Assembly: GCA_043767805.1 (NCBI GenBank)
Contig: JAYUGC010000175.1
Location: 1-21,645 of the forward strand
Direction of reading: 5' to 3'
DNA length: 21,645 bases
DNA from: Pseudomonadota bacterium
Lineage (GTDB): Bacteria; Bdellovibrionota; FAC87; UBA2466
In this document: piece by piece, positions 6,626 to 21,556 of the stretch
Layout: each line of letters starts with the position of its first letter
Numbering within the stretch: position 1 is the stretch's first letter
Program-made: the position numbers and the translations under genes
Notes under the pieces: generated by a model
Told to the model about the DNA's origin: nothing
Databases searched by the model: none
The model's input: the letters and a program-made list of their open reading frames with translations, nothing else

Positions 6626-6641
6626 AGCAGAACCCGTGCCA
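6626..6641 (-). promoter_or_regulatory. sigma54 -24/-12 promoter for the cytochrome c operon
   Basis: Minus strand TGGCACGGGTTCTGCT; GG-N10-GC spacing. Confidence 0.8.
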
Positions 6642-6693
6642 AGGAATTTAGGCGGGGCTCAGGCTCACCACTGGCTTAAAAAGCGGGGTGCGC

Positions 6694-6708
6694 GGGCCAT
6701 TTCGTCCC
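6694..6708. promoter_or_regulatory. Putative enhancer (UAS) palindrome, single clear copy
   Basis: GGGCCATTTCGTCCC matches the GGGACA-N3-TGTCCC family. Only a weak half-site lies 20 bp downstream. Confidence 0.55.
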
Positions 6709-6797
6709 GCGAGTTTGCTTTCTGTCGTGGTCTGAGCTTCCGTCGCGGCGTCGCCTGGCTTGCCAACTCGAAGGGCAAAACCGAGTGCCGTGAATGC

Positions 6798-6813
6798 TGG
6801 CACGTCACGTGCT
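6798..6813 (+). promoter_or_regulatory. sigma54 -24/-12 promoter for the NtrC-family regulator
   Basis: TGGCACGTCACGTGCT; GG-N10-GC. Confidence 0.75.
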
Positions 6814-6872
6814 CATTAGAGAAGGAGAGCTCCAGTTCAGGCTGTAAAACATGGGCAGAGGCAAGGAAGCAT

Positions 6873-6907
6873 GGGACACTATGTCCCGCGTTAGGTCAAA
6901 AAGGCCC
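6873..6907. promoter_or_regulatory. Tandem UAS-type palindromes in the regulator's leader (possible autoregulatory operator)
   Basis: Perfect GGGACACTATGTCCC (6873-6887) plus AGGTCAAAAAGGCCC (6893-6907), 20-bp offset. Confidence 0.7.
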
Positions 6908-6925
6908 ATTGAAAGGTAAAGACGG

Positions 6926-8380
6926 ATGAAAACCACTAAGGGCCATGTAGTCGTCGCGGATGATGATAGGGAAATGCGAGGACTCATTACGGATTTCCTT
7001 ACGACCGATGGCTACCAAGTCTCGGCGTTTCCCTCCGCCGTCGAGGCCCTGAAGGCCCTTCGGCCCGGAGGAGGCTTGGAAGCCGGGCAGGGCACCGATG
7101 TCGACGTCATCGTCTCCGACCTTCGCATGGCCCAGATGGACGGAATGCAGTTTCTCAAAACCATCAAGGCCGAGCGCCCGGACATTCCGGTGGTTTTAGT
7201 TACCGCCTTCGGAAGTATCGACACCGCCATCGAGGCGATGCGAAACGGCGCCTATCACTACGTGGTGAAGCCGTTCAAGTTGGCTGAAATGAGCGTGACC
7301 GTGGAGCACGCCCTGGAGCGTCGGCAACTAACTCGCGACAATCAGATCCTTCGCCGCGAAGTAAAAAAGAAATACGGCGTCTCGGGGCTTCTTGGAAAAA
7401 GCACGGCGATGCAATCCGTTTTCGATTTGATCGGGCGAGTCGCCACCTCTACCGCGAACGTGCTCATTAACGGGGAAAGCGGCACGGGAAAAGAAATGGT
7501 GGCCCGCGCGATACACAGCTCCGGTCCTCGGGCCAAGCAGCCGTTCATTGCCATCAACTGCACCGCCATTCCCGAGACTCTTCTGGAGTCCGAGCTTTTT
7601 GGGCATGCGAAGGGCTCCTTCACCGGAGCCACCAGCCGCAAGAAAGGACTCATTGAGGAAGCCAACGGAGGAACACTCTTTCTGGACGAGATCGGTGACA
7701 TGAGCCCGCCCCTCCAGGCCAAACTCCTGAGAGTTTTGCAAGAGCGCAAGATTCGTCCGGTGGGCGACAATCACTTTTATGACGTCGACGTGAGAGTGGT
7801 CTCGGCGACTCATAAGGATCTCAAGGCCGCCATCCGAGACGAGCGTTTTCGCGAAGATCTCTTTTACCGGCTGAGCGTGATTCCCATCGTCATTCCACCT
7901 CTGCGTGAGCGTCCGGAGGACATTCCGCTTTTGGCCGAGCATTTTCTGGAAAAATACTCGGCCGCGAACGCCGTTCCCGGCGGAAAGCGAATCACCGGCC
8001 TTACCAAAGGGGCGCTTTCCAAGCTGATGAGCCTTCGTTGGAAAGGCAACGTACGCGAGCTCGAAAACGTCATGGAACGAGCGGTGGTGCTTTGCCCGCA
8101 AACGATCATCGACGTCTCCGACATTCCCGATCCGCAATCGGCCGGTCCCGACGAGGCGATGCGAGTGGTTACGGGTGATTTTCCGACGGTGGCCCAGCTC
8201 GAAGAGCGTTACATTCGCCTGGTCTTGGAAAAGACGGCGGGTCGTAAGGATAAGGCTTCCCAGATTCTCGGCATCCATCGCCGCACGCTGTACCGCAAGG
8301 AACGAGATTACGGGTGGGTGACCGAAGACGCGGAGATGGAAGGCGGCACGGAACCGAAAGACGAGGTCTCCAAGCGTTAG
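6926..8380 (+). CDS. NtrC/AtoC-family sigma54-dependent response regulator (receiver - AAA+ - Fis HTH)
   Basis: Receiver VADDD…IVSDLRM…KPF; Walker A GESGTGKE; ESELFGHAKGSFTGA; Walker B LFLDEIG; FREDLFYRL; GNVRELEN; HTH ASQILGIHRRTLYRK. Confidence 0.97.
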   Translation: MKTTKGHVVVADDDREMRGLITDFLTTDGYQVSAFPSAVEALKALRPGGGLEAGQGTDVDVIVSDLRMAQMDGMQFLKTIKAERPDIPVVLVTAFGSIDTAIEAMRNGAYHYVVKPFKLAEMSVTVEHALERRQLTRDNQILRREVKKKYGVSGLLGKSTAMQSVFDLIGRVATSTANVLINGESGTGKEMVARAIHSSGPRAKQPFIAINCTAIPETLLESELFGHAKGSFTGATSRKKGLIEEANGGTLFLDEIGDMSPPLQAKLLRVLQERKIRPVGDNHFYDVDVRVVSATHKDLKAAIRDERFREDLFYRLSVIPIVIPPLRERPEDIPLLAEHFLEKYSAANAVPGGKRITGLTKGALSKLMSLRWKGNVRELENVMERAVVLCPQTIIDVSDIPDPQSAGPDEAMRVVTGDFPTVAQLEERYIRLVLEKTAGRKDKASQILGIHRRTLYRKERDYGWVTEDAEMEGGTEPKDEVSKR

Positions 8381-9486
8381 GCTTTCGGTACGCGCACGGT
8401 GAAAGTGGTGCCAGCCCCTTGGGGTAATTTCACGCCGATGGATCCCTGCCACCCGCGCACGATCTGATCGCAAATGGGTAAGCCCAGGCCCGTTCCGACT
8501 TCGGGCGCTTTGGTCGTGAAGAAGGGTTTGAAGATCTCGTCGAGATGCGGCTCGGGGATGCCACAGCCGGTGTCGCTCACGTCCATTTCCCAGTGATCGT
8601 CTTTAAGGCGAGCTTCGATCGTCAAAACATGGTTGCGTGTGCGTCCCTGCTCGATTTCGGACTCGATGGCTTGGATGGCATTGAGCAGGAGATTGAGGGC
8701 GACCTGCTCGAATAGAGTAGGTTCCGCGAGGATGGCCACCTCCTCACCCAGCCGGTTCTCTAACCGAATGCCGTGCTGGGCCAGCTGCGGGGCAAGTAAG
8801 TCGAGGACCTTGTCGAAAATCAGTTTGGGACGAACCGCGGAGAGCGTATCGGTCTTCGTGCCCCGGGCCAAATGCAAGAGGCTGTACATCAGCCGGGCGA
8901 TGCGATCGATTTGATTGACGACGATATCGAGATTTTTGCGGGCCGGTTCGTTCTCTTTCATCAAAAGCGCCAGGTACTCGGCCCGGCCGCGAATGACCCC
9001 GAGGGGATTGCCAATCTCGTGAGCGAGGCCGGCGGAGATTAGCCCCAAAGAGGCCAGGCGATCTTGATGGAGAAGCTGGGCTTCCATCGCTTTTTTTTCC
9101 GTGATGTCGACGGCAATTCCCATGTAGCCCACCAGTTGCCCCGCATCGTTTCGAAAGGGCGTGATGGTGAGAAAGACGGGAACCTCGTGCCCGTCCTTCG
9201 CGCGGTTGACCAGCTCGCCCTTCCAGTAGCCCACTTTCGGATCGGCGATTTGCCTCCACATCTTGCGGTAAAAGACTTCGTCTTGATGCGGGGAGCGAAG
9301 GAGAGCGGGGGTAGCGCCTATGGCCTCCTGCGCGCTGTAGCCGTAAACCCTCTGCCAGGCGCGGTTTACATAGTGAAGCCGTCCGAGCAAGTCGGTGAGC
9401 ATGACCGTATCGTTCGAATCATCCACGCAGCGGTGAAAGACCGAAGGGTCGTCGACCAAGGAGGGAATGAAAGGGGGAACCGGCAT
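8377..9486 (-). CDS. Cytoplasmic PAS-domain sensor histidine kinase (NtrB-like); start uncertain (9486 or 9498)
   Basis: PAS/PAC ([13 protein letters not shown]…[12 protein letters not shown]), H-box [12 protein letters not shown]-box [26 protein letters not shown]. Convergent with the regulator, with overlapping stop codons. Confidence 0.93.
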
Positions 9487-9498
9487 TAGGCTCTTCAT

Positions 9499-9514
9499 TG
9501 CAAAGCCACAGCCA
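9499..9514 (-). promoter_or_regulatory. sigma54 -24/-12 promoter for the PAS kinase
   Basis: Minus strand TGGCTGTGGCTTTGCA; GG-N10-GC. Confidence 0.7.
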
Positions 9515-9534
9515 GCCTCGGGCAGCCTGGGCGC

Positions 9535-9569
9535 GGGCCCAAATGTCAGACCGTAGGCCAAAATGTCCC
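9535..9569. promoter_or_regulatory. Tandem UAS palindromes
   Basis: GGGCCCAAATGTCAG (9535-9549) plus AGGCCAAAATGTCCC (9555-9569), 20-bp offset. Confidence 0.7.
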
Positions 9570-9599
9570 CTCGCCTGCCGGGGGCTGCCCTCGCGGGGG

Positions 9600-9615
9600 T
9601 GGCATGGTCGCTGCA
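9600..9615 (+). promoter_or_regulatory. sigma54 -24/-12 promoter for the MBL hydrolase
   Basis: TGGCATGGTCGCTGCA; GG-N10-GC. Confidence 0.75.
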
Positions 9616-9627
9616 ACTCTCCTGAGG

Positions 9628-10986
9628 ATGCGACTACAATTTTTGGGCGCCACCGGAACGGTGACCGGATCGAAATACCTCGTCGAAAAGGATGAGGTGA
9701 GAATCCTGGTCGACTGTGGCCTCTTTCAGGGAGAGAAAAACCTTCGTTTGCAGAACCGGGATGAGTTCCCCGTCCCACCCGGAGATATTCAGACCGTCCT
9801 TCTCACGCACGCTCACCTCGATCACTCAGGCTATCTGCCGCTTCTAGTCCGAAACGGATTTCGGGGCGAAGTTTATGCGACTCCGGCCACCGAAGCGTTT
9901 TGCCGCATTCTGCTTCCCGACAGCGGGCGGCTGCAAGAAGAGGAAGCCCACTACGCCAATCGCGCCGGCTATTCAAAACACCACCCGGCTCGTCCTCTCT
10001 ATACGTACGATGACGCCGTGAACTGCCTTACTGCTTTCGATCCCGTGCCCTTCGGAAAATCCCTGGGCCTGGGAGGCGGGCTGCAGTTTCATTTCGAGCG
10101 GGCCGGCCATATTCTCGGCGCGTCGATGGTCATGCTCAAAGCGAACGATAAGAAACTACTTTTCACCGGCGATCTCGGCCGGCCGGGAGATCCGGTGATT
10201 TTCCCGCCGAGTCCCATCGAGTCCGCCGACTATCTCGTCTTGGAGTCCACTTACGGAGACCGGCTGCACAAACCAGTGGACTGGCTGAGCGAGCTCGAGG
10301 CGGTTTTGCTCAGAACCATACTGAGGAGGGGAGTGGTCGTGATTCCGGCGTTCTCCGTCGGTAGATCGCAGACCTTGCTCTACGGTCTCTACCGTCTTAG
10401 GGAGGCAAAGCGCATCCCGAACGTTCCCATTTTTCTGGATAGCCCTATGTCGGAGGAGGCGGTGCGAATATTTCGCCGTTTTCAGGGCGAGCATCGCTTG
10501 AGCCCCGAAGAGTGCGCGGGAACTTACGACGTCGCCAAGTACGTCCGATCTTCCGAGGAGTCCAAAGCACTGAATAATCGCAAAGGGCCCATGATCATCG
10601 TCTCGGCTTCCGGCATGGTCACGGGCGGACGCGTGCTTCACCACATCAAAGAGCGGGCGCCCAATCCGGACAACACGATTCTCCTTACCGGTTTTCAAGC
10701 CAATGGGACACGGGGGGCGGCGCTCCTTGGCGGGACGCGCACCGTAAAGATTCACGGGGAACTAGTCGCGGTGAACGCGGAGATTGCTTCGCTGGACAAT
10801 CTGTCGGCGCACGCCGATCAAGGAGAAATCTTAAGCTGGCTGTCTCATTTCAAGCGTCCTCCCGAAACGACCTTCATTACCCACGGCGAGCCGGAGGCCG
10901 CCAGCGCACTGGCGAGCGCCATCGAAAAAAAACTGGGATGGAAGTGCCACGTGCCGCACTACCTGGAAAAGGTGGATTTGAAATAG
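9628..10986 (+). CDS. MBL-fold metallo-hydrolase, beta-CASP family (putative ribonuclease)
   Basis: MRLQFLGATGTVTGS, LVDCGLFQG, THAHLDHSG, AGHILG, FTGDLG, ESTYGDR, SASGM, LSAHAD, HGE. Confidence 0.95.
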   Translation: MRLQFLGATGTVTGSKYLVEKDEVRILVDCGLFQGEKNLRLQNRDEFPVPPGDIQTVLLTHAHLDHSGYLPLLVRNGFRGEVYATPATEAFCRILLPDSGRLQEEEAHYANRAGYSKHHPARPLYTYDDAVNCLTAFDPVPFGKSLGLGGGLQFHFERAGHILGASMVMLKANDKKLLFTGDLGRPGDPVIFPPSPIESADYLVLESTYGDRLHKPVDWLSELEAVLLRTILRRGVVVIPAFSVGRSQTLLYGLYRLREAKRIPNVPIFLDSPMSEEAVRIFRRFQGEHRLSPEECAGTYDVAKYVRSSEESKALNNRKGPMIIVSASGMVTGGRVLHHIKERAPNPDNTILLTGFQANGTRGAALLGGTRTVKIHGELVAVNAEIASLDNLSAHADQGEILSWLSHFKRPPETTFITHGEPEAASALASAIEKKLGWKCHVPHYLEKVDLK

Positions 10987-10987
10987 C

Positions 10988-11983
10988 TCAGGGGGCAAAG
11001 ACTTGATTGGTGAGCGGCCGCCCCTGCTCGAACTCGGTTGCGTTTTGGAGCGTCGTGTCGGCTATGTTGTCGAGCGCTTCCTGAGTGAGGAAACCCTGAT
11101 GAGAGGTGATCAAGACGTTTGGAAACGTCAGCAGCCTGGCCAGGACGTCGTCCTGCAGAACCTGACCCGACATGTCCTTGAAGAAGACGCTTTCCTCTTC
11201 TTCGTAAACGTCGAGGCCGGCCCCTCCGAGCTTCCCCTGTTTGAGGTGCTCGACGAGGGCTTTGGTGTCGATGAGAGCTCCGCGGCCTGTATTGATGAGA
11301 AGGGCGCCGGGCCGCATGCGAGAGAGGGCTTGGTCGTCGATAAGATGACGAGTCTGAGGACCAAGCGGAAGATGTAAGGTGATGATCTGAGATTTTTCGT
11401 AAAGGGCTTGAAGGGAAACGTACTCGGCACCGAGGGCCGCTACTTCCTGGCGAGGAAAAGGATCGTGTGCGAGCACTCTGCAGCCAAAGCCCGTCAGGAT
11501 GCGGACCATCACCGTGCCGATTTGACCCGTGCCAACGACGCCCACGGTTTTGCCGTGCATGTCGAACCCGACCAGGCCATCGAGCGAAAAATTCAGCTCC
11601 CGCACGCGGGAATAAGCGCGGTGGATCTTTCGATTCAAAGTCAGCATCAGGGCGATGGCATGCTCGGCCACCGCGTAGGGCGAATAGCGAGGCACTCTTA
11701 CGACGGTAAGCCCCAGGGTTTTCGCCGTGTTGAGATCGACGTGATTGAACCCTGCCGATCGCAAGGCGATGAGCCGGACGCCTTCCTCTTTGAGCTGAAT
11801 CAAGGTGTCCGCACTCAAATTGTCGTTGGCGAAAGCGCACACTCCTTCATGTCCCCGGGCTAGGGTGGCCGTTTCGCGGGTCAGCCGGGGCTCAAGAAAG
11901 GTGAGCTGGTGCTCATATTTTTTATTGAGTCTTTCCAGGCATTCCCGCTCGAAGGAATGGGTATCAAAGACGGCTAGTTTCAT
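10988..11983 (-). CDS. ldhA: D-lactate dehydrogenase / D-2-hydroxyacid dehydrogenase
   Basis: ALRSAGFNHVD, VRVPRYSPYAVAEH, Rossmann GVVGTGQIG, INTGRG, LDVYEEE, RLLTFPNVLITSHQGFLT - close to LdhA signatures. Confidence 0.9.
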   Translation of the reverse strand: MKLAVFDTHSFERECLERLNKKYEHQLTFLEPRLTRETATLARGHEGVCAFANDNLSADTLIQLKEEGVRLIALRSAGFNHVDLNTAKTLGLTVVRVPRYSPYAVAEHAIALMLTLNRKIHRAYSRVRELNFSLDGLVGFDMHGKTVGVVGTGQIGTVMVRILTGFGCRVLAHDPFPRQEVAALGAEYVSLQALYEKSQIITLHLPLGPQTRHLIDDQALSRMRPGALLINTGRGALIDTKALVEHLKQGKLGGAGLDVYEEEESVFFKDMSGQVLQDDVLARLLTFPNVLITSHQGFLTQEALDNIADTTLQNATEFEQGRPLTNQVFAP

Positions 11984-12009
11984 GGCTGCTTTCCAAATGG
12001 GGTTAGGAA

Positions 12010-12032
12010 GCGGGGGCCTCGAGGGCCCCCGC
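12010..12032. other. GC-rich stem-loop between the secreted-protein gene and ldhA
   Basis: GCGGGGGCC-TCGAG-GGCCCCCGC, perfect 9-bp stem, no long U-tract. Confidence 0.6.
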
Positions 12033-12043
12033 GCTTTCCGATG

Positions 12044-12802
12044 TTAGTTTAGGGGGGAAGTGGGATCCATCGGAAACTTCTTGTGAGGCTCGATGAGCCG
12101 ATTGACCGCTTTACCGTTCATGGAGCGGGCGTGGAGAAGATAGGCATGCTGACCCAGAATCAGGGAGAGAGCCCTTTCCTGGCGAAACGGATAGTAGCCT
12201 GCGGTACAAACGCCCGAAGAAGAAGGTGTGTATTGAATGACGGGCATCACGACGACGACGTCGGTGTAGATTTCTACCCTGATGTCCAAGAGGCTCAAGC
12301 AATCGTTCGGAAAGATGCCGGAGACGACTACGTCATGCCCAAAGGGCATTCTGGGTTTCAGCGTCACGTCACTCACCGGAGCATAAGGAGCGTCGTCGGT
12401 CCCGGGGCCGGTGTTGGTGGCGCGCAAGATAGGCAGCGTGCCCAGAGACGATTGGCTCGTACCGTCCCAAATCTCGTAGTCGCCCGCGGGAAGCACGGGG
12501 AGGTTGGTCATCTGCTCGAAAGGCATCTTGAGGGGCCAGCAATGAGTGCCGGTGTACTGATACGCCTTTTGCACCACGGTAATGCGCCGGTGAACCGGAT
12601 CCACTTTGACGTCTTGATCGGCCAGCTGAAAACAGAGATCGGAGAACTGCCCGGTCACCATGAATTGAGGCACGTCGTTGCTATCAAACCCCACCGGGAC
12701 GTAAGCCTTGGCGAGGGCAACCGAGACGAGCGCCGGGTCGGTACCTTGCGCCGTTGCGAAAGAAGCGACCATCCAGATGCCCAACGTGAGAAAGCGAATC
12801 AT
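12044..12802 (-). CDS. Secreted hypothetical protein, two-repeat Cys-pair family (paralogue 1)
   Basis: GGGAG RBS, signal peptide, YVPVGFDSND, DDAPYAPV and YLLHARSMNGKAVN, shared with 16765-17472. Confidence 0.85.
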   Translation of the reverse strand: MIRFLTLGIWMVASFATAQGTDPALVSVALAKAYVPVGFDSNDVPQFMVTGQFSDLCFQLADQDVKVDPVHRRITVVQKAYQYTGTHCWPLKMPFEQMTNLPVLPAGDYEIWDGTSQSSLGTLPILRATNTGPGTDDAPYAPVSDVTLKPRMPFGHDVVVSGIFPNDCLSLLDIRVEIYTDVVVVMPVIQYTPSSSGVCTAGYYPFRQERALSLILGQHAYLLHARSMNGKAVNRLIEPHKKFPMDPTSPLN

Positions 12803-12847: not shown

Positions 12848-12863
12848 TGCAATCGCCGGACCA
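12848..12863 (-). promoter_or_regulatory. sigma54 -24/-12 promoter for the secreted protein-ldhA unit
   Basis: Minus strand TGGTCCGGCGATTGCA; GG-N10-GC. Confidence 0.72.
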
Positions 12864-12893
12864 CAAAGGTCGTGTGGCGTGAAGAGAAAGTGT

Positions 12894-12928
12894 GAGGCAA
12901 TTTGACCCGAGATCGGACTTTTCGTCCC
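12894..12928. promoter_or_regulatory. Tandem UAS palindromes
   Basis: GAGGCAATTTGACCC (12894-12908) plus CGGACTTTTCGTCCC (12914-12928), 20-bp offset. Confidence 0.7.
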
Positions 12929-12970
12929 AGGGAGGCAAGTCGGTCAGCTTTATAGCGGTGGAATAGTTTC

Positions 12971-12986
12971 GGGCCCGGCCCTTGCA
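12971..12986 (+). promoter_or_regulatory. sigma54 -24/-12 promoter for the CBS-USP-eRF1-like operon
   Basis: GGGCCCGGCCCTTGCA; GG-N10-GC with TTGCA. Confidence 0.65.
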
Positions 12987-13013: not shown

Positions 13014-13421
13014 ATGAGCCCGCCAATCTCCGATTTCATGACGACGATCCCCGTGCAAGTCGATAAGAGCGCTTCCCTCGAGACGGCTCGGCGCCTGCTC
13101 GAACGTTACGGTATCCGGCATTTGCCGGTGATGGCGGACGGAAAACTAGTCGGGGTCGTCACCGAACGGGAAATGAACGTAGCCCTCGCTGTCGCAAGAT
13201 CCCATAGTCTCGAAGTGACGGTAGAGACCGCGATGCAGTCCCCGGCTTTCCAGGTCGGCAAGAACGTACCCGTGGGCGATGTGGCCGAGCGAATGGCCAA
13301 AGAGAAGTTCGGCTGCGCCATCGTCGTGCATGAGGAAAAGATCTGCGGCATCTTTACGACTACCGATGCCCTTTTTCTACTGACCAAATATTGCAAGAAA
13401 GAAGGAAAAGACCATGTCTAA
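13014..13421 (+). CDS. CBS domain pair protein (alternative start 13005)
   Basis: IRHLPVMADGKLVGVVTERE and FGCAIVVHEEKICGIFTTTD. AAGGA RBS lies 9 nt before ATG 13014. Confidence 0.9.
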   Translation: MSPPISDFMTTIPVQVDKSASLETARRLLERYGIRHLPVMADGKLVGVVTEREMNVALAVARSHSLEVTVETAMQSPAFQVGKNVPVGDVAERMAKEKFGCAIVVHEEKICGIFTTTDALFLLTKYCKKEGKDHV

Positions 13422-14394
13422 ATCTCGGCTCATTTGGCCCATAAACCCTTTTGCCGACGAGAAAACTTATTTCAAGCATGCCTTGAAGGTCATCGGCGAG
13501 TTTGCGGCGGCGTCCGGCCTCCAGGTCGAGCCGGTGTATGTCTTATCCCCTCCCGGAATAATCCTGCCGACGGGTTACGTGCTGGACAAAATGGAACCGG
13601 CGGAACCGAAAGTGAAAGCGGCTTGGGAAGCGCTTACCAAAGGGAGCAAGTACGCGGGCTCCTTCCTTCCACCGACGGTTCTGACCGATGCTTCTCTGTC
13701 TAAGTATGGAATGTCACGCGCGGTCGTGGACTATGCGAAGACTGTCGGCGCGGAAGCCTTGGCGGTGGCGACGCATGGACGGAAAGGGGCCGCGCGTTTC
13801 GTGATGGGAAGCTTTGCGGAAAGTCTCCTTCATGCGGCGGATTTGCCCCTCTTCGTTTTCAATCCCTGCGCGGAAAAAGCGGGCCGCACTCGCAAGATTC
13901 TCTTTCCCGTGGAGCTACCGCTGAGTCCGACGACACCGGTGGATCAAGTCATTCAGTTCGCCAAAGCGAGCAGGGCGAAGCTCGTTTTCTTTCATAAGGT
14001 GGATTATCTGAACCAGTTCACGGCGGAGCCTCTATTTCAGATGCCAACGTATCGAGGCTATTTGGAACAAGATCTAACGGCTCGGCGGGATGAGCTCAGC
14101 AAGTTGTTGAGCCGCTCGCGCTCGTGCGGGGTAGTGGCGGAAGCGATTTTGGACCAAGGGACCGCCTACGTCCCCGACGGAATTCTGGCCACCGCCAGAA
14201 AGCAGGGCGTGGATCTCATCGCCATGGTGTCAGGCGCGGGACGAGTTCAGTCCGCGCTTCTGGGTAGCGTGACCCGACAGGTGCTCCGGACCGCCAAGCA
14301 ACCCGTCTGGGTGGTGCATCCCGAGCCAGTCGCGGCCCGCCAAACCATTTTTCCTAAAATCGAGGTCGTAACCTCAAGAAAGGCTCGTCAGTAG
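13414..14394 (+). CDS. Tandem-domain universal stress protein
   Basis: ATHGRKGAARFVMGSFAESLL; RKILFPVEL; DLIAMVS…LLGSVTRQVLRTAKQPVWVV. Overlaps the CBS gene by 8 bp. Confidence 0.9.
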   Translation: MSKSRLIWPINPFADEKTYFKHALKVIGEFAAASGLQVEPVYVLSPPGIILPTGYVLDKMEPAEPKVKAAWEALTKGSKYAGSFLPPTVLTDASLSKYGMSRAVVDYAKTVGAEALAVATHGRKGAARFVMGSFAESLLHAADLPLFVFNPCAEKAGRTRKILFPVELPLSPTTPVDQVIQFAKASRAKLVFFHKVDYLNQFTAEPLFQMPTYRGYLEQDLTARRDELSKLLSRSRSCGVVAEAILDQGTAYVPDGILATARKQGVDLIAMVSGAGRVQSALLGSVTRQVLRTAKQPVWVVHPEPVAARQTIFPKIEVVTSRKARQ

Positions 14395-14395
14395 T

Positions 14396-14767
14396 ATGAA
14401 CAATTACATCGTTTTCTTGGACCAGGAGCACGCCAAGCTGTTTGAGCTGCTTCCCGACGGAGTGGAGGCTCACAAGCTGCAACGCCAAGAAATCCGGCAT
14501 CACAGCGGCGTGGAGAAATCGCAAACGGCGCACAAAGACGGATCAAAGTTTTTTCACGAGGTAGCGACCCATCTCGGCAAGGCCGATCAGGTGCTTCTTG
14601 TCGGCCCGGGGCTTGCGAAGAAATCGTTTCAGACGCATTTGGAGAAACATCATCATGCCGAGCTTTTCAAGAAGGTAATCGGCGTTCAGACCGTGGATCA
14701 TCCGACGGATGAGCAGCTCGTAGCGCTCGCTAAGAAATTCTTCAAAGCTCATCTCCGTTTCGAGTAG
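14396..14767 (+). CDS. eRF1-domain/host-attachment-like small protein ('translational machinery protein' type)
   Basis: VFLDQEHAKLF…FFHEVATHL…VLLVGPGLAK…VIGVQTVDHPTDEQLVALAKKFF pattern; His-rich. Confidence 0.75.
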   Translation: MNNYIVFLDQEHAKLFELLPDGVEAHKLQRQEIRHHSGVEKSQTAHKDGSKFFHEVATHLGKADQVLLVGPGLAKKSFQTHLEKHHHAELFKKVIGVQTVDHPTDEQLVALAKKFFKAHLRFE

Positions 14768-15021
14768 ATCTCAATTTGGTGCTTCTAGGCATCATGCCCA
14801 TAGATTGCCTCGCCATCAAAGACGTCGGCTTGGAGGTTCAGCCGAACGTGGTGGTGGTGATGCCGCGTCTCACGCGCATTGCGGGAATGGCGTGCCGGGC
14901 GGGAAATTATCCGTTTCTCAAGGTGGTGCCAGCTGCCAGCGCACTTCCCCGGGGGATCTACTTACTCCACGTCCGCTCCATGGGGGGTCGTTCAATCAAC
15001 AAAATTATCGCCGGTAACTGA
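14768..15021 (+). pseudogene. 5'-truncated remnant of the two-repeat Cys-pair secreted protein family (paralogue 3)
   Basis: GIMPIDCLAIKDVGLEVQPNVVVVMP…ACRAGNYPF…YLLHVRSMGGRSINK aligns to the C-terminal third of 12044-12802. No signal peptide, no RBS. Confidence 0.75.
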
Positions 15022-15028
15022 AGAAGCG

Positions 15029-15059
15029 GAGGCGGTGGGAGTCTGGCTCCGCCGCCTTC
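15029..15059. terminator. Imperfect stem-loop between convergent genes
   Basis: GAGGCGGTGGGAG-TCTGG-CTCCGCCGCCTTC; no clear U-tract. Confidence 0.4.
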
Positions 15060-15364
15060 ACTCCGGATCGGGAGACTCGCTCAGATCCAAGAGTGTGCGT
15101 TTTCCGTCCTTGAGCTGAGTGGCGCCTCGGATCGTCTCGATGGAGGCCGTCTCGGGATTCACGGAGACGTCCACGACATACACCATGAGTCCGCCTGAAG
15201 TGAGCGAGAGTATCTTGGTCGTCTTGTCTTTCTTTTTGCGGAACGCGCCCGATTTATTGACTGACTTCCTCGTGCGCGCGTTCAACCGGTTTGAGCTCTT
15301 CGACCGAAGTAATTTCTCCTTGAACGAGGCTGCAGAAGAAGAGGGGAAGGAGTAGGCGGCGCAT
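15058..15364 (-). pseudogene. Disrupted small secreted protein (stop/frameshift near 15240-15256)
   Basis: GGAG RBS, then ATG 15364 MRRLLLPLFFCSLVQG… which stops after 36 codons at TAA 15254-15256. Coding-like sequence (KILSLTSGGLMVYVVDVSVNPETASIETIRG) continues in another frame to 15058. It has its own sigma54 promoter. Confidence 0.5.
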
Positions 15365-15400: not shown

Positions 15401-15416
15401 TGCAAGAGCGACGCCA
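15401..15416 (-). promoter_or_regulatory. sigma54 -24/-12 promoter
   Basis: Minus strand TGGCGTCGCTCTTGCA; GG-N10-GC. Confidence 0.75.
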
Positions 15417-15445
15417 GGGTTTGAGCTTCGAGGTCCGGCCCTCGA

Positions 15446-15483
15446 GGGACATTTCATCCCCCGCTGAAGGGACAATTTCACCG
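15446..15483. promoter_or_regulatory. Tandem UAS palindromes
   Basis: GGGACATTTCATCCC (15446-15460) plus GGGACAATTTCACCG (15469-15483), 23-bp offset. Confidence 0.65.
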
Positions 15484-15513
15484 ATCGGACCTCAAGTTCC
15501 ACGCTGGCGGCCA

Positions 15514-15529
15514 TGGCATGACGCCTGCA
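15514..15529 (+). promoter_or_regulatory. sigma54 -24/-12 promoter for the second USP
   Basis: TGGCATGACGCCTGCA; GG-N10-GC. Confidence 0.75.
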
Positions 15530-15560: not shown

Positions 15561-16565
15561 ATGACGGATCGAGTGAAGCCAGCTTCCAAATGGATTTGGG
15601 CAGTAGATGCCTTTCATGAGCAGCCCGTGAGTCAGTGGAGAGCGGTGGAGGCCCTGCGTTCCTCACTCGGCGGAGTCCAGCCGGCCATTCAGCCCGTCTC
15701 TTGCCTGGCTCTGGGACAATTCAATCCCGGGCTCGGAGTTTTCGAGGAGAAATGGCATCGACTAGCGGCTCACGCTGAGAAAAAATTGGAATCGCTCCTA
15801 AAACAGGGTGAGCCAAAGGGCCTACTGATGCCACGGCTGCTGCGGCAAGAAGATCCCGTGATCTCTTTCGGCGTGGATGCCCTGGTTAGATTCGCGTTGG
15901 AAGAGGGCGCCGAGGGAATCGTGCTGACTTCTCACGGCCGCAAGGGCCCGGCGCGGTGGGTGCTTGGTAGCTTCGCCGAGACGCTCGTGCTGCGCTCTCC
16001 TCTGCCGGTACTCGTGGTAAATCCGCGCGCGGCTCGCCCGAAACGGATTAAGACCATCGTTTTCCCCACTGACTTCAGCGCCGGCTCTCGGGAGGCCTTC
16101 GGCCGCACCTTGGCGATCGCTTCCCGGATAAAAGCCAAGATTGTCTTGTTCCACAAAGTTTCAACGCTCTACCCTGAAGTCGGCAATGCCACCGCTTCCG
16201 GAAAACGAATCGATCCCGTTCGGGAGAGAAGGGATGAGCTGAAGGCCGAGGGAGCCGCCTGGATCGCGTTCGCCGCCGGGATGGGCGTCAAAGTGAGGGT
16301 CATACTCGACCTCAAAACGGGGCGAGTCCTTCCCGCTCTGATGAGAGTCATCGACAGCGTGGGAACTGACAGCATGGTAGCGATGGCGTCAACGAGCGGT
16401 CTTTTTAAATCCCTGATGCTAGGCAGTCTCTCGCGTCAGGTGCTGCGCGAGGCGCGCCGGCCAGTGCTTATCTTTCACGCTGAACAAGAGTCTTTGACCG
16501 AAGTCTTCCTGGCCCAGCTAAACCGTTTCGCTTTCGCTTACGCCGCGAATCCCGTCGTCCGATAA
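15561..16565 (+). CDS. Tandem-domain universal stress protein (paralogue of 13414-14394)
   Basis: AAGGTG RBS; WIWAVDAF; TSHGRKGPARWVLGSFAETLV; KTIVFPTDFS; MLGSLSRQVLREARRPVLIF. Confidence 0.9.
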   Translation: MTDRVKPASKWIWAVDAFHEQPVSQWRAVEALRSSLGGVQPAIQPVSCLALGQFNPGLGVFEEKWHRLAAHAEKKLESLLKQGEPKGLLMPRLLRQEDPVISFGVDALVRFALEEGAEGIVLTSHGRKGPARWVLGSFAETLVLRSPLPVLVVNPRAARPKRIKTIVFPTDFSAGSREAFGRTLAIASRIKAKIVLFHKVSTLYPEVGNATASGKRIDPVRERRDELKAEGAAWIAFAAGMGVKVRVILDLKTGRVLPALMRVIDSVGTDSMVAMASTSGLFKSLMLGSLSRQVLREARRPVLIFHAEQESLTEVFLAQLNRFAFAYAANPVVR

Positions 16566-16598
16566 GCCATTTCTCCTCTATCGTCGATATCCCAAAGT

Positions 16599-16634
16599 GA
16601 GTCTCCTTGCCCCAAACATGGGTCAGTTTGTCTC
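16599..16634. promoter_or_regulatory. Tandem UAS palindromes (degenerate)
   Basis: GAGTCTCCTTGCCCC (16599-16613) plus GGGTCAGTTTGTCTC (16620-16634), 21-bp offset. Confidence 0.55.
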
Positions 16635-16675
16635 TCTTTTCCTTCTCCGAATTTTCTTTCTCTCATGAAACGAGT

Positions 16676-16691
16676 TGGATCGCTGATTGCA
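16676..16691 (+). promoter_or_regulatory. sigma54 -24/-12 promoter
   Basis: TGGATCGCTGATTGCA; GG-N10-GC. Confidence 0.65.
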
Positions 16692-16764
16692 CAGCGTTTC
16701 GGCATACGAATCTTTCTTGCTTTGCCAAAAGCAGGCGAGAAAAGTCATTACATGGGAGTTCTTA

Positions 16765-17472
16765 ATGCGTAGTACCAAGTGGATTCTTTCATTGCTCTGT
16801 TTCGCCAGACTGGCCGCGGGGGCGGTAAGCGGAGCGGTTCCGGTGCCCAATATTTCCCTCTTCGTGCCTCAAGGATTCGACGATAACGACGAGGTTGTGG
16901 TCACTCTGGATGGATACTTGCCCAATGCCTGCTATCAGCTCACGGAAGCGGTAGTCACCCGCGATCTGACCAACCACCGAATTCTCGTTCAGCAGATGGC
17001 CTACGTGAGCCCCGGGCCGTGCGTGCAGGTGCTGAGCCCGTACGTCAATACCGTGCGGATCGGTCAGCTTCCGGTCGGCAGCTACATGATAGCGAGCGCT
17101 TCGGGAAGTTTGCGCAAAACTTTGAACATTACACGCGCGCCCATTCCCACCAAGGACGACTACTTGTACGCGCCCATCGATTCCGCGATGGTCGCGCCGT
17201 ACCAAGGGGGTTACGTGGCCGTCTTGACCGGACGGTATACGAATTCCTGTCTTCGCATGCGCGCCATTCCGGTAAGAGCCACAGGTGACACGGTTCAAGT
17301 GTTTCCCATCATGGAGTTTCGCAAAGCGGACGAGGCTGGAAGGCCTTGTCGCAAAGTGGAGCTTCCGTTTCGCGTGACCCAAAGACTCCCCGCGCTTTCT
17401 CGGGGACGCTACCTCCTGCACGTTCGGAGCCTGAACGGCCGGTCCGCTAATACGGTCTTCTCGGTAGAGTAG
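16765..17472 (+). CDS. Secreted hypothetical protein, two-repeat Cys-pair family (paralogue 2)
   Basis: GGGAG RBS before ATG 16765, signal peptide, FVPQGFDDND, DDYLYAPID, YLLHVRSLNGRSAN. Confidence 0.85.
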   Translation: MRSTKWILSLLCFARLAAGAVSGAVPVPNISLFVPQGFDDNDEVVVTLDGYLPNACYQLTEAVVTRDLTNHRILVQQMAYVSPGPCVQVLSPYVNTVRIGQLPVGSYMIASASGSLRKTLNITRAPIPTKDDYLYAPIDSAMVAPYQGGYVAVLTGRYTNSCLRMRAIPVRATGDTVQVFPIMEFRKADEAGRPCRKVELPFRVTQRLPALSRGRYLLHVRSLNGRSANTVFSVE

Positions 17473-17487
17473 ATCGCCATCCTACTG

Positions 17488-17520
17488 GCCCACTCGGCTT
17501 TTTGCCGGGTGGGCTTTTTT
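17488..17520 (+). terminator. Rho-independent terminator
   Basis: GCCCACTCGGC-TTTTT-GCCGGGTGGGC followed by TTTTTT. Confidence 0.85.
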
Positions 17521-17607
17521 AATACCTCGCCTACCTCTCAAACTGATCCGGCTCTCCCCACTGAAGGAAGACGCAAGCCATCACTCAAGTGAGCCAAACG
17601 TGGTTAT

Positions 17608-18012
17608 TTATGCCTTTGCTTTGAACGGGACGGAGGGGAGGGGGAGCAGGGCCTGCTCTATTTGCTCTTTTAGGTAGCTCAACGGAAAAGGCTTGATGAG
17701 ATAGGCGGCTGCGTTGAGTCGCGTGGCCTCCTGCCGTTCCTCGGGACTTCCTTCCCCCGTAAACAGCAGAATGGGCAGATTTGGGTGCTCACCGTGGGCG
17801 ACGATGAGAAAATTGAAACCGTTCATGGGGCGCAAGGTGGTGTGGCAGACGATGGCACGGGGAACCTCAGGGCTTTCCAAGGCCAACAACGCATCGACGG
17901 CCGAGCTGAAGCCGCGAACCTCATACCCTTGAGTCACCAGAAAATCCTGGAGAAGCGATCGCATCGGAGCTTCATCGTCGATGACCCAGATCATGTTTTT
18001 AGTAGGGGGCAC
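17608..18012 (-). CDS. Single-domain response regulator with His at the phospho-acceptor position (pseudo-receiver)
   Basis: WVIDDE, IVCHTTLRPMNG (D->H at residue 57), LFTG, YLIKPF. Confidence 0.85.
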   Translation of the reverse strand: MPPTKNMIWVIDDEAPMRSLLQDFLVTQGYEVRGFSSAVDALLALESPEVPRAIVCHTTLRPMNGFNFLIVAHGEHPNLPILLFTGEGSPEERQEATRLNAAAYLIKPFPLSYLKEQIEQALLPLPSVPFKAKA

Positions 18013-18054
18013 TCTGACTCACTCCGGTCCTTGGTTACTCCCTGGATCTAGAAG

Positions 18055-18070
18055 AGCAAGGGGCGTGCCA
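18055..18070 (-). promoter_or_regulatory. sigma54 -24/-12 promoter (consensus match)
   Basis: Minus strand TGGCACGCCCCTTGCT. Confidence 0.88.
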
Positions 18071-18100
18071 AAAAAATTAACCCGTAGCCAGCGAAGGCTC

Positions 18101-18135
18101 GGGAAGGATTGTCTGACTGTGGGACTTATTGTCCG
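18101..18135. promoter_or_regulatory. Tandem UAS palindromes
   Basis: GGGAAGGATTGTCTG (18101-18115) plus GGGACTTATTGTCCG (18121-18135), 20-bp offset. Confidence 0.7.
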
Positions 18136-18218
18136 CCAGGTGGTAGAACCCCACGATACTCTTTATGCAGACTCTTGATTGGTGCCTGGCAAAGGCCCAC
18201 GTTAAGAGCGAGGTAACG

Positions 18219-19778
18219 ATGAACCGCGCTTGGACCGAAGGCACTTTTCAGGGACTATTGGACTCCGCTCCGGATGCGATGGTCGTCGTGCGAGCGGATG
18301 GCAATATCGTCTTAGTCAATAGTCGGGCTGAGCACATCTTCGGTTACACTCGCGGCGAACTTCTGGGCCAAAAAATAGAGATCCTGCTGCCCGCGCGCTT
18401 TCAAAAAAGTCATATTCCGCATCGGGACGGCTATTTCAAGCTGCCGCGGGTCCGTCCCATGGGCGAAGGACTCGATCTTTACGGATGTCACAAGGACGGT
18501 CACGAGTTTCCGATCGAGATCAGCCTGAGCCCTCTACAGACCGCCGAAGGCCTTCTGGTGACGAGCGCGATTAGAGATACGACTGAGCACCGAAAGGCGG
18601 AGGCCGAGCTGAAAAGGGCCCGGGAAGCGGCGGACTCGGCGAATCGAATCAAGAGTGAGTTTCTCGCCAATATGAGCCACGAGATCCGAACTCCGCTCGC
18701 CGGCATTCTCGGTTATCTCGAAATGCTCGAGCTCTATTGCAAAACCGACGAGGATCGCAAGGACTACATCGCCAAAGCCAAGCGAAACGCGAATAATCTG
18801 ACGGAGCTCATCAACGATATCTTGGACCTTTCGAAGGTCGAGGCGGGAGCTCTGCAAGTCGAGCAACTTAAGTTCTCTCTCTCCGTCGAGATCGAAGGCG
18901 TTCTTTCACTTTTGCAGGGCCAAGCGGAAGAGAAGTCGATTGTCTTGGAATCGCTCGTGGAGCGTCCGATTCCTTTAAATATAGTGTCGGACCCGAAACG
19001 CTTTCGGCAAATTCTCATCAACGTTCTGGGAAATGCCCTTAAATTCACGCAGGCGGGCAGAGTCACGCTCCGGGTTCGGTATGTGAAAGCAACGGGTAAC
19101 AGACCCGTCCTCGAGCTCAGTGTTACCGACTCGGGATGTGGCATTGCCGCGGAAGCGCACACTAAGCTTTTCGAGCCTTTCGTGCAGGCCGACAGTTCCA
19201 CGACGAGAAAATACGGAGGCACCGGATTAGGCCTCGCGCTGTCTCGAAATCTGGCACGGGCCTTGGGAGGCGACTTGGTTTTGACTGAGAGCGTTCCTGG
19301 TAAGGGCAGTACGTTCACGATTACCATCGACCCTGGTAACTGCGATTCGTTAGGAGAAGGTTGCGAACGCGTGGGCCGGGCGTTGCCGGCGGCCAATAGC
19401 GACTCCCTTCGCATCGACGGAGTGCGTATCCTGCTAGCCGAAGACAACACGGACAACGAGCTGCTCATTTCTCAATTTTTGACCAGGGCGGGAGGCAAAG
19501 TCTCCATCGTGCGCAATGGGCTGGAGGCCGTTGAAATGGCGCTTAGCGAGAGGTTCGACGTCGTCTTAATGGATATTCAGATGCCTGTGATGGATGGGTA
19601 TGCGGCTTCCAGGAAGTTAAGGAAAGAGAGCTTCGCGAGCCCCATCTTCGCGTTGACGGCGCATGCGATGATCGAAGAGCGCGAGAAGTGCCGAGAGGCA
19701 GGCTGTGACGAGATCTTTACCAAGCCTTTGGATTTCGCGGTCCTGCTCGGCACCATTCAGAAATATTTGAAGCACTAA
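18219..19778 (+). CDS. PAS-domain hybrid histidine kinase/response regulator (FixL-like PAS)
   Basis: [19 protein letters not shown]…[17 protein letters not shown]…[44 protein letters not shown]; receiver LLAEDN…VLMDIQMP…TKP. Confidence 0.95.
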
Positions 19779-19781
19779 GCC

Positions 19782-20243
19782 CTACTGGGGAACCTCGTGG
19801 CTTGTCGCCTTTTCCCAGAGCGGGCGGCCGGACAGCTCCCGTAGAATCGCTTTGTGCTTTCCGCGCAGGATTTCGCGGGCAATCAGCGTCGGTTTGCCCC
19901 CGAGCCGAATGGTGACTCCGACCACTACGACCGGCTCGCCTTTGGTGAAGAGTAAGTCACGCTCCAGCACGAACCAACGGGGCCCGACGTGCACGTCGAT
20001 GTTGCCGCGTTCTCCTTGAAGCTTGAGAGAGATGCCGGGCTCCATCCCCGCAAGCGGGGTGATGTCTTCGGTGCGAAGCACTTTGCCTTCGATGCGTGCC
20101 TCCGATCCCGCCTGGTAAAGATGGTGATAAGCGCCGGAAGTGCCCCAACTGCCGCTGGTGGCGGCGATGGTCTCGGCGTGGCTCAGGGGAAGGTACGCGA
20201 CGACCCAGAGCAGCAGGATTAGGGTAATGGCATGGGTTCGCAT
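19782..20243 (-). CDS. Exported protein, OB-fold-like (VHVGPxWF motif, MamS/MamX-domain-like)
   Basis: GGAGAG RBS, signal peptide ending SHA-E, IEGKV…VHVGPRWF…GEPVVVVG…LIAREI…LRELSGRPLW. Confidence 0.7.
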   Translation of the reverse strand: MRTHAITLILLLWVVAYLPLSHAETIAATSGSWGTSGAYHHLYQAGSEARIEGKVLRTEDITPLAGMEPGISLKLQGERGNIDVHVGPRWFVLERDLLFTKGEPVVVVGVTIRLGGKPTLIAREILRGKHKAILRELSGRPLWEKATSHEVPQ

Positions 20244-20273
20244 GGAAGTCTCTCCGTTGAATAGGTCGGGATT

Positions 20274-20738
20274 CTATTTTCGAAATTTGGCTACTTTGGT
20301 CCGCTTCGAAGTGAGGGGCTGCGGCCAGAGGTCTCTGAGCTCCTTGGGAAGGCACTGAACGACGTCTTCAATCTCCCCCGCGCTTACTTTTTGAGACAGA
20401 AAGACGAAAACGTCCTGAACCATCATTTCGATTTGCTCGTCGGAAAGTTCCTTGAATTGCGGCGAGAGTTTCGCGAGAAAGTCATCCGCGTACCGGCTCT
20501 TCTCCCTCTTTGCCGCTGGTCTCCAACCTTCATAAAAAAGTCCCTTGATGATCAGAGGAAACTGAGAAGCCAGATCGGCGCCTTCCGCGGGCGGCAGATG
20601 CTCGCGTAGCTCCTGCAAGGTGAACCTGAGGGCCCGGCAGGCATAAGCCTCATCCTCGGTATTCATCTCCTTCATCAGCTCGCCAAGCCATTGCCGCGTG
20701 GTTTCCAGACTGGGTTTAAACTCGTTCAACGTGGTCAT
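20274..20738 (-). CDS. DUF2267-family protein
   Basis: AGGAG RBS before ATG 20738; TRQWLGEL…AYACRALRFTLQELREHLP…DLASQFPLIIKGLFYEGW…VSAGEIEDVVQCLPKELRDLWP. Confidence 0.85.
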   Translation of the reverse strand: MTTLNEFKPSLETTRQWLGELMKEMNTEDEAYACRALRFTLQELREHLPPAEGADLASQFPLIIKGLFYEGWRPAAKREKSRYADDFLAKLSPQFKELSDEQIEMMVQDVFVFLSQKVSAGEIEDVVQCLPKELRDLWPQPLTSKRTKVAKFRK

Positions 20739-20769
20739 AATCGCTCCTGGGTTAAATAGATTTCCTGGA

Positions 20770-21288
20770 TCAGTGATCGCGCCAATCGTCTTCCTCATCC
20801 TCGCTGGGCGCCTCGGCCTGCAAAGACTGTGAAAAATCCATTTCTCTCGGCTGCGCGATCTTCCGCCAGGTCTCAAACGGTACGCAAACCGCGTCGCCGC
20901 GGGCTCCCCCGGAGAAAGAAATGTCTTTGGTGATCTTGAGACTCGGATCCATCCAAATATCGATACCCGGCCAGTGGCGCAGGGGAGGAATCGCCCCCAC
21001 TTCACAGTCCGAGAAGAAGAACGCGGCTTCGTCTTCCGAAAGAAGCCTTGCGCATAGGGAAGGCGCGAGCCGGCGGACCTTTTCGAGAGACACTCGCCGG
21101 CAGGCGGGAAGCACGAGCAGCAAAATGGCATTATCGATCTCTACGGCAACGGTTTTGGCGACTTGGCGACCGCTGATGTGCTCGGCCTCCGCGATTTCTT
21201 GGGCAGTGAAGGCCGGCCGGTGATGAAGCTCGCGAAAGGGGGCTCCAGCCGAGCTCAGCGTTTCTTTGACCCAGCGTAATGTGCTCAT
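20770..21288 (-). CDS. YbaK/EbsC (prolyl-tRNA editing-like) family protein
   Basis: AAGG RBS before ATG 21288; HRPAFTAQEIA…VAKTV…LLVLPA…FSDCEVGAIPPL…MDPSL. Confidence 0.88.
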   Translation of the reverse strand: MSTLRWVKETLSSAGAPFRELHHRPAFTAQEIAEAEHISGRQVAKTVAVEIDNAILLLVLPACRRVSLEKVRRLAPSLCARLLSEDEAAFFFSDCEVGAIPPLRHWPGIDIWMDPSLKITKDISFSGGARGDAVCVPFETWRKIAQPREMDFSQSLQAEAPSEDEEDDWRDH

Positions 21289-21417
21289 GGGCGACCTTTC
21301 CAGAAGAAATCGCCGGAGGCGAGGCCAGTTCGATTCCGACGCATTTAGGCGGCAGCGAATTTGCACTCCGCACCGGTTCCAACGATCTTGACGGGTGATC
21401 CTTTCACGCAAACGTTT

Positions 21418-21433
21418 AGCAGGATGCGTGCCA
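21418..21433 (-). promoter_or_regulatory. sigma54 -24/-12 promoter for the YbaK-DUF2267-exported protein operon
   Basis: Minus strand TGGCACGCATCCTGCT. Confidence 0.8.
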
Positions 21434-21474
21434 CGTCGAAGAAAGAGAGAATTTCCGGCCCGGGAGGTCTTGGG

Positions 21475-21509
21475 GGGAATTTTAGTCCCTTAGTGGGCCA
21501 CTCTGTCGC
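21475..21509. promoter_or_regulatory. Tandem UAS palindromes
   Basis: GGGAATTTTAGTCCC (21475-21489) plus GGGCCACTCTGTCGC (21495-21509), 20-bp offset. Confidence 0.7.
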
Positions 21510-21540
21510 TTCTTTACCTAGTTCCCAACCGAATTTCGTT

Positions 21541-21556
21541 TGGCATGAATTCTGCT
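21541..21556 (+). promoter_or_regulatory. sigma54 -24/-12 promoter
   Basis: TGGCATGAATTCTGCT; GG-N10-GC. Confidence 0.8.

Follow-up and report, generated by a model that had tools for sequence, protein, structure and literature searches.

The DNA analysed here (the window) is the whole 21.6-kb contig JAYUGC010000175.1 (21,645 nucleotides; C175), part of a 4.5-Mb Bdellovibrionota genome in 204 contigs (G000). It encodes an NtrC-type sigma-54 activator (6926–8380, +), consisting of a receiver domain with D65, an AAA+ domain with a GSFTGA loop, and a Fis-type helix-turn-helix. Around it are two soluble histidine kinases and a series of genes that mostly lie behind sigma-54 promoters. GSFTGA is listed among the active variants of the GAFTGA-type loop (PMC4641369). 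The initial annotation, made from the sequence alone, had described a self-contained regulon of 12 sigma-54 promoters run by an AAA+ activator encoded within it. That activator is present, with the domains just listed. Our conclusion is that the promoter-bearing part of the window (the island) is probably the central part of a sigma-54 regulon that this activator controls, with low oxygen or a reduced state of the cell interior as the switch. The promoters, a shared palindrome, its 10.5-bp phasing, the link to one activator clade, and the cofactor-type PAS domains of the kinases come directly from the sequence. What defines the island is the palindrome, and not promoter density or back-to-back pairing.

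Sigma-54 promoters and the genome background

A sigma-54 matrix was trained on the other 203 contigs only, and the window was scanned with a threshold score of at least 7. There were 15 hits, of which 12 (scores 9.9–21.0) are the GG-N10-GC elements listed in the initial annotation, all with the same coordinates and strands. The remaining three are at 6534(+), 12558(+, coding) and 21350(+). The non-coding DNA of the island (2,556 bases) contains 14 hits, compared to a mean of 0.45 and a maximum of 4 in 1,000 shuffles of 2-base blocks, while the genome's own intergenic rate predicts 2.4 (Poisson p 3e-7). It had been noted that almost every transcription unit is preceded by such an element, and by our gene map this is the case for 12 of the 13 units from 5076 to the contig end, the exception being the hybrid kinase gene (18219). 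Intergenic and coding densities were compared, as the annotation had proposed: elsewhere in the genome, non-coding DNA has about 11 times as many sites per length as coding DNA (4.6 vs. 0.42 per 10 kb, at score 11). The gene for sigma-54 itself, rpoN, is located on contig C10. A sigma-70 scan gave 2 sites, against 4.6 in shuffles, and an Rfam search found no match.

It might be argued that none of this is specific, and that a sigma-54-rich genome yields promoter clusters and pairs by itself. The genome has 355–440 intergenic sigma-54-like sites, about 19 candidate sigma-54 activator genes and 24 back-to-back promoter pairs. Only 5 of these pairs are in the window, while 6 are on contig C3, which has more sites per length than the window; the bare GG-N10-GC pattern occurs 282 times in the window. 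Because the genome is so rich in sites, activators and pairs, density and pairing alone define no regulon, nor do they point to the local activator. Most other promoters, however, lack the motif, the phasing and the conservation with one activator clade that are described below, and of the 19 pairs outside C175 just one has a motif site with a score of at least 9. The motif enrichment and phasing already largely refute this explanation, which we find scarcely credible. The C3 cluster (locus L084) has 19 intergenic sigma-54 sites, an activator of its own, and KGG, BON and CBS genes. It probably answers to another activator, because only one of its pairs carries the island motif.

The palindromic motif and the activator clade

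The spacers contain a palindrome, absent from the initial annotation, with consensus TGGGACAAATTGTCCCA and core GRGACA-WWW-TGTCYC, occurring mostly as pairs of sites 20 bp apart. The pairs start at 6873/6893, 9535/9555, 12894/12914, 15446/15469, 16599/16620, 18101/18121 and 21475/21495, and there is a lone site at 6694. A palindrome search of eight spacer and leader regions gave an information content of 11.5, compared to 6.9 ± 0.2 in 12 shuffles and 7.5 ± 0.5 in 12 random sets of sigma-54 upstream regions. The window holds 7 of the 10 best site pairs in the genome, as judged by a matrix trained on the window sites themselves. A de novo search around the start codon at 21 activator-orthologue loci, without the window, gave an identical consensus; 19 of these loci score at least 14, while of the two misses one locus is disturbed by Ns and the other lacks a site. 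A second matrix was built from orthologue loci with the window left out. With this relatives-only matrix, a site is found 25–105 bp upstream of 12 of the 14 intergenic sigma-54 sites in the window, but of only 12 of 411 on other contigs. The 12 are exactly those described initially, and both extra hits lack the motif. Control intervals farther upstream and downstream of the sigma-54 sites have the motif in 3 and 2 of the 411, and column-shuffled matrices find a mean of 0.2 of the 14 window sites.

Orthologues of the activator (57–85% identity) were found in 18 of the 40 relatives searched, and Bdellovibrionota groups are named in the titles of related loci. In a quick tree, the 22 orthologues fall into one clade (SH-aLRT 99), with hardly any variation in their recognition helix. 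L137_4342 was placed with a different paralogue in this tree and left out of the orthologue counts. For each of the 25 NCBIfam models shown, the activator stays below the cut-off. The motif is upstream of one of the 19 activator genes in the genome, the local one, where it scores 18.9, against at most 5.6 for the others. It precedes the activator in 19 of the 21 orthologue loci and in none of 18 other activator genes. The combined pattern of site and promoter has 19 matches in 10 of 41 genomes, while the reversed pattern has none. Nine of the ten genomes hold an orthologue; none was detected in the tenth (G026), which is 79% complete. Expressed differently, the pattern occurs in 9 of 19 genomes with an orthologue and 1 of 22 without. 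Some homologues of the activator and of the cytochrome described below (P0051, P0054 and P0156) carry Gammaproteobacteria or Xanthomonadaceae labels.

Measured from the centre of the site, the first G of the promoter lies at distances that cluster at 38–41, 47–51, 58–62, 68–72, 80, 92 and 101 bp. The phasing period is 10.5 bp, with R 0.70 over 52 promoters of relatives, and R 0.74 when one promoter is taken per genome (16 genomes). In the window, all 21 distances for the 11 target promoters are 29, 38–40, 49–51, 59–62 or 70–71. There are four true pairs, in which both sites are in phase with both promoters, across spacers of 85, 107, 97 and 107 bp. The first (9499–9615) has promoters 9499–9514(−) and 9600–9615(+) around sites 9535–9549 and 9555–9569; the second (12848–12986), which is also present in the same-genus genome G001, has promoters 12848–12863(−) and 12971–12986(+) around sites 12894–12908 and 12914–12928. 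The third (15401–15529) has promoters 15401–15416(−) and 15514–15529(+) around sites 15446–15460 and 15469–15483. In the fourth (21418–21556), with promoters 21418–21433(−) and 21541–21556(+) around sites 21475–21489 and 21495–21509, the rightward promoter faces a gene cut off by the contig end. Two further modules are single: 16599–16691(+), with sites 16599–16613 (weak) and 16620–16634 and promoter 16676–16691, and 18055–18135(−), with promoter 18055–18070 and sites 18101–18115 (weak) and 18121–18135. In the 9499/9600 pair, the predicted starts fall about 2 nt before an ATG (9486–9498(−) and 9628–9630(+)), so that both transcripts are predicted to be nearly leaderless. The long reading-frame starts at 9498 and 9604 abut or overlap these promoters.

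The remaining pair is different, and the suggestion that each back-to-back pair has a shared enhancer holds for four of the five. Between the promoter of the cytochrome c'-TPR gene (6626–6641, −) and that of the activator (6798–6813, +, conserved in orthologues) there is a single strong site, 6694–6708, with a relatives-only matrix score of 12.9. It is a predicted enhancer, in phase with the leftward promoter and 61 bp upstream of it (centre to first G). The activator's own pair (6873–6887 and 6893–6907) has the top score in the window, 18.9, and lies within the leader, 81 and 101 bp downstream of the activator promoter. The combination of promoter and downstream pair is conserved in 10 of 10 aligned orthologue loci, which were chosen because both were present, and in several relatives the leader pair is also in phase with a divergent promoter. 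The leader pair is probably an autoregulatory operator. Negative autoregulation is the simplest reading, and activation from downstream is possible. FlrC and FleQ activate from sites downstream of the promoter.

Another possibility is that the palindrome is bound by a different protein, be it a repressor or some other member of the 19 activators, and that the local activator is itself no more than a target. Such a protein would account for the position of the strongest site, downstream of the activator promoter as for a repressor, and for the motif in G026. It would also account for three relatives that have a site pair before an oxidase operon and no facing sigma-54 element. It does not fit so well with the co-occurrence of motif and activator clade or with the nearly invariant recognition helix, and phasing to sigma-54 sites suits an enhancer, while G026 is incomplete. 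We therefore consider a different binder to be improbable. The earlier claim that the island is run by the local activator stands in so far as the palindrome tracks the clade of this activator; the promoters by themselves would have been insufficient, given about 19 candidate activators. The wiring as a whole, meaning the activator, the motif and the phased promoters, is very likely to be correct.

We suggest the following mechanism. Haem and FAD would allow the soluble PAS kinases to sense a gas or the redox state, and D65 of the activator would be phosphorylated by the simple kinase. Activator dimers would then bind the two sites, which at 20 bp from each other share a helix face, and form oligomers. 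On both sides the −24 element is 39, 50, 60 or 71 bp from the pair, a spacing that would let a single bound activator open either of two back-to-back promoters via a short loop. The pair in the activator's leader may limit activator expression or serve a divergent gene. The output would be a persistence kit of stress proteins, an NADH sink, an RNase and a cytochrome that binds gas, to which relatives would add a high-affinity oxidase.

Kinases, probable target genes and the proposed signal

The kinase gene next to the activator (8377–9498, −; start probably 9486) encodes a soluble histidine kinase with a NifL/MmoS-like PAS domain, whose best matches are MmoS, NifL and Aer, and which retains the F-alpha tryptophan (Trp81). 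The second (18219–19778, +), which has no sigma-54 element of its own, encodes a soluble hybrid kinase. Its PAS domain is FixL/FG214-like, with best matches to FG214 (10JX), FixL and DosP, and retains the F-alpha histidine (His65). The key Trp is present in 5 of 5 and the key His in 11 of 11 aligned PAS domains (at least 38% identity). In PAS domains, F-alpha tryptophan is a marker for FAD and F-alpha histidine for haem (bioRxiv 10.1101/2023.04.23.537977). Neither kinase has membrane segments. The 8377–9498 kinase is likely to be the cognate kinase of the activator, judging from kinase class only. A single receiver domain is encoded at 17608–17994(−), in which His replaces the phospho-acceptor Asp; the same change is seen in relatives L123 and L124, while others keep the Asp.

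The commonest cargo gene, found at 17 of the 22 orthologue loci, is at 5326–6489(−). It encodes a secreted single-haem protein with a cytochrome c'-like four-helix domain and a TPR-like domain, for which 84 homologues are listed and the structure model has pLDDT 90.9. A sequence search found no solved relative, and at E 0.001 there was no Foldseek match. The Foldseek hits to cytochrome c' have E about 0.3, probability 1.00 and TM 0.69 over the target, and TPR proteins are also weakly matched. The cytochrome c' assignment is thus a lead, backed by the position of the CxxCH motif.

Further to the right, there is a beta-CASP RNase of the metallo-beta-lactamase fold (9628–10986, +) and a D-lactate dehydrogenase-like 2-hydroxyacid dehydrogenase (10988–11983, −). 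The latter has its own module in relatives, and here would be read from the 12848 promoter. Two secreted beta-sandwich proteins (12044–12802, − and 16765–17472, +) are paralogues, the second giving an Atlas lead to the YB1M family, which is mostly from Bdellovibrionota. The 13014–14767(+) region encodes a CBS-pair protein, a tandem universal stress protein and a small pelota/eRF1-like protein, and a second tandem universal stress protein is at 15561–16565(+). The pattern G-2X-G-9X-G(S/T), as written for the search, was found in neither universal stress protein. At 14776–15021(+) only the C-terminal part of a third beta-sandwich paralogue is left (56% to a gene that is full-length in G001), and 15058–15364(−) is a deletion remnant, of which the start is Tll0287-like (by eye) and the end matches the next gene of G001. 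With two gene remnants at 14776–15364, the island has therefore lost DNA. The 15401(−) promoter has been preserved together with its sites, even though the gene it faces is now a remnant. The last genes (19782–21288, −) are YbaK-like, DUF2267 and, as an Atlas lead, MamS/MamX-like. Outside the regulon, the open reading frame 3174–4052(+) has a dioxygenase-like start (by eye) fused to an ArsM-like methyltransferase part, and the contig end at 1–94 is a perfect 14-bp tandem repeat of 6.7 copies directly after a SNF2 helicase gene.

Similar genes surround the activator in relatives: the 22 orthologue loci have a universal stress protein in 15 cases, a CBS protein in 12 and a kinase in 18. Other neighbours are HSP20, a Tll0287-like protein, a Zn alcohol dehydrogenase and a potassium channel, and acetyl-CoA hydrolase is likewise among the targets or neighbours. 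In G001, a module faces an operon resembling ccoP-ccoN-ccoO. A close form of this cbb3-like oxidase is present in 10 genomes, and in 6 of them a full module faces the operon, in one case via a first universal stress protein gene and in four away from the activator gene. The loci L172, L174 and L177, all from one genus, have a site pair before the cbb3-like operon with no sigma-54 element towards it, and a divergent sigma-54 site 122–124 bp away. Five distant oxidase forms have no module within 1.5 kb.

On the other contigs of G000 there are 12 sigma-54 sites with a motif score of at least 9, where 2–3 are expected by chance. There are about 7–10 candidate promoters of the regulon elsewhere in the genome. 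The description of the regulon as self-contained therefore has to be given up, the more so because in relatives the motif precedes unlinked cbb3-like operons. One outside site is before a beta-sandwich paralogue on C66, and three on C11 are before copper genes. No overlap was found that joins the ends of C175 to another contig. On C20 (L160 1289–1744, −) there is a hemerythrin-like gene (by eye, with a weak hit to the PA2171 family), which has a strong sigma-54 site upstream and one enhancer-like site at its start.

The C11 sites could be taken to indicate a copper or metal regulon like those of ZraR/CorR, particularly as many activator homologues are labelled 'HydG' in the sources. The three C11 modules stand before CopA/CopB, methionine-rich proteins and a copper ATPase. 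This C11 stretch (L082 1–17400) is however atypical, with a low codon score, and ends at a tyrosine-recombinase/integrase-like gene (by eye) and tRNA-Ala. It also carries zwf/gnd and a 61% paralogue of window 19782–20243. The module is present at no more than 1 of 23 copper-ATPase loci, so that the copper genes look like a local addition. The activator scores 402 against the ZraR model, which has a cut-off of 760, and both kinases, being without membrane segments, are without periplasmic sensors. Copper as the signal was dropped in view of the 1 in 23, and a metal regulon is highly improbable.

The signal is, we believe with reasonable confidence, low oxygen or redox state. The same wiring could serve another signal, such as NO, CO, haem supply or energy state, and would then run a growth-arrest or nitrosative-stress programme. 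In the PAS domain of the hybrid kinase, the position of the FixL distal arginine is occupied by leucine. In FixL this arginine holds O2, so that the ligand here need not be O2. The cytochrome c' fold binds NO and CO, and the commonest cargo protein has a domain of this type. Universal stress and CBS proteins are general stress markers, and no match to a cbb3-like subunit was found in G000. The closest solved PAS domain, FG214, is a haem-bound redox switch (bioRxiv 10.64898/2026.03.15.711900). Set against this are the six modules before a high-affinity-type oxidase operon, and three enzymes encoded by targets or neighbours that fit oxygen shortage, namely lactate dehydrogenase, Zn alcohol dehydrogenase and acetyl-CoA hydrolase. 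A different signal is unlikely.

Several other observations count against a low-oxygen regulon run by this activator, in addition to the leucine and the missing cbb3-like gene just mentioned. Of the 10 genomes with the close oxidase form, 3 have a site without a sigma-54 element facing the operon and 1 has neither, and the cbb3-like subunits are below NCBIfam cut-offs. The three C11 candidate targets are copper genes. Kinase content differs among relatives, and no kinase gene was seen at 4 of the 22 orthologue loci. The eight window regions of the palindrome search were picked after the motif had been seen by eye, and the relatives are kin and not independent, so that p-values are overstated. 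Cytochrome bd was not supported as a target, since 0 of 13 loci have a module within 1.5 kb.

Comparison with described systems

Among described systems, NmpRSTU of Myxococcus xanthus comes closest; it has an NtrC-type activator working with sigma-54 and is induced by hypoxia (PMC11841059). The island resembles it in the type of activator, in paired palindromic sites (15 bp in NmpRSTU) and in the predicted input of several kinases including a haem sensor. The NmpR targets include CBS and universal stress proteins, both found in the island, as well as a cbb3 oxidase and its own genes (PMC11841059). The oxidase is a predicted shared output only in relatives (6 of 10), and not in G000. The NmpR motif is GCGCA-N5-TGCGC, with 14–15 nt between sites, while the island motif has about 5 nt between sites; G000 has 19 exact single matches to the NmpR motif, none of them on C175. 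NmpU is a protoglobin kinase, whereas the island has PAS kinases, and protoglobin (PF11563) has no match in G000, which is 100% complete by markers. NmpR has 7 promoters, compared to 12 in one stretch here. As a stand-in for NmpR we used L242, chosen by gene context (tandem NmpR sites, HemN, a universal stress protein and an NmpS-like kinase) and not NmpR itself. It is 43% identical to the activator, has a different recognition helix, and falls outside the clade with support 99. L218–L288 have tandem NmpR-type sites at about 39 and 51 bp from sigma-54 sites, roughly as for the island motif, and L247 has eight NmpR-type sites, with CBS and beta-CASP genes.

FixL-FixJ of rhizobia is similar in having a kinase with a haem-type PAS domain and F-alpha histidine. 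Its regulon includes a cbb3 oxidase. FixJ does not belong to the sigma-54 activators, and its effects run through FixK/NifA. The island kinase is unlike FixL in being a hybrid, in lacking the distal arginine, and in standing beside a second kinase of FAD type. The mycobacterial DosR dormancy regulon has haem sensor kinases, and its cargo includes universal stress proteins, CBS proteins and small heat-shock proteins; it differs from the island in its LuxR-type regulator, GAF sensors and sigma-70-family promoters. Metal systems of the ZraSR/CorSR type have a membrane-bound kinase and conserved metal-resistance targets, neither of which is seen in the island. The lxa locus of Burkholderia cenocepacia is like the island in its stress proteins, cytochrome c, metal-dependent RNase and redox enzymes, and in a single motif that recurs across many intergenic gaps and is also present at a few loci outside (PMC3721108). 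That motif is FNR/Anr-like, TGA-N6-TCA (PMC3721108), whereas the island has sigma-54 promoters and an enhancer motif. The FNR-type box TTGAY-N4-RTCAA does not occur in the window, and loose TGA-N6-TCA hits are outside the promoter spacers.

In Desulfovibrio vulgaris, sigma-54 regulons are like the island in having an activator beside its targets and, for DVUA0100, a divergent pair with a common upstream motif (PMC4641369). They mostly comprise 1–4 operons, the largest being flagella with 12 (PMC4641369; its motif figures were outside the comparison). The available part of a survey of sigma-54 regulons makes no mention of Bdellovibrio (PMC12316311). Our literature search, in which most subscription papers, motif figures and supplements were outside reach, found no description of the activator, motif or regulon. 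The view that this is not a described regulon thus holds for the clade, the motif and the sensors, all of which differ, while NmpR is a precedent for a sigma-54 activator with such cargo (PMC11841059). The best reading is that the island has another activator clade, motif and sensors than NmpR, though it would work like it. Whether it is also an independent invention of a low-oxygen persistence regulon, coupling haem and FAD PAS kinases to an undescribed Bdellovibrionota activator clade, with a two-way cassette of about 100 bp and a self-capping activator, is in our judgement evenly balanced.

The island supplies an activator, a candidate site, probable sensors and targets for a largely uncultured group, and these are testable in E. 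coli. With its spacers of 85–107 bp, the phased two-way cassette lends itself to asking whether two sigma-54 promoters can be served by a single enhancer-bound activator, and it offers a compact building block for synthetic control in two directions. The cytochrome c'-TPR and beta-sandwich families, to which no function has so far been assigned, gain a physiological setting. If the signal is oxygen, similar cargo would be under the control of FNR-type, DosR-type, NmpR and island regulators, which would be a case of convergent wiring.

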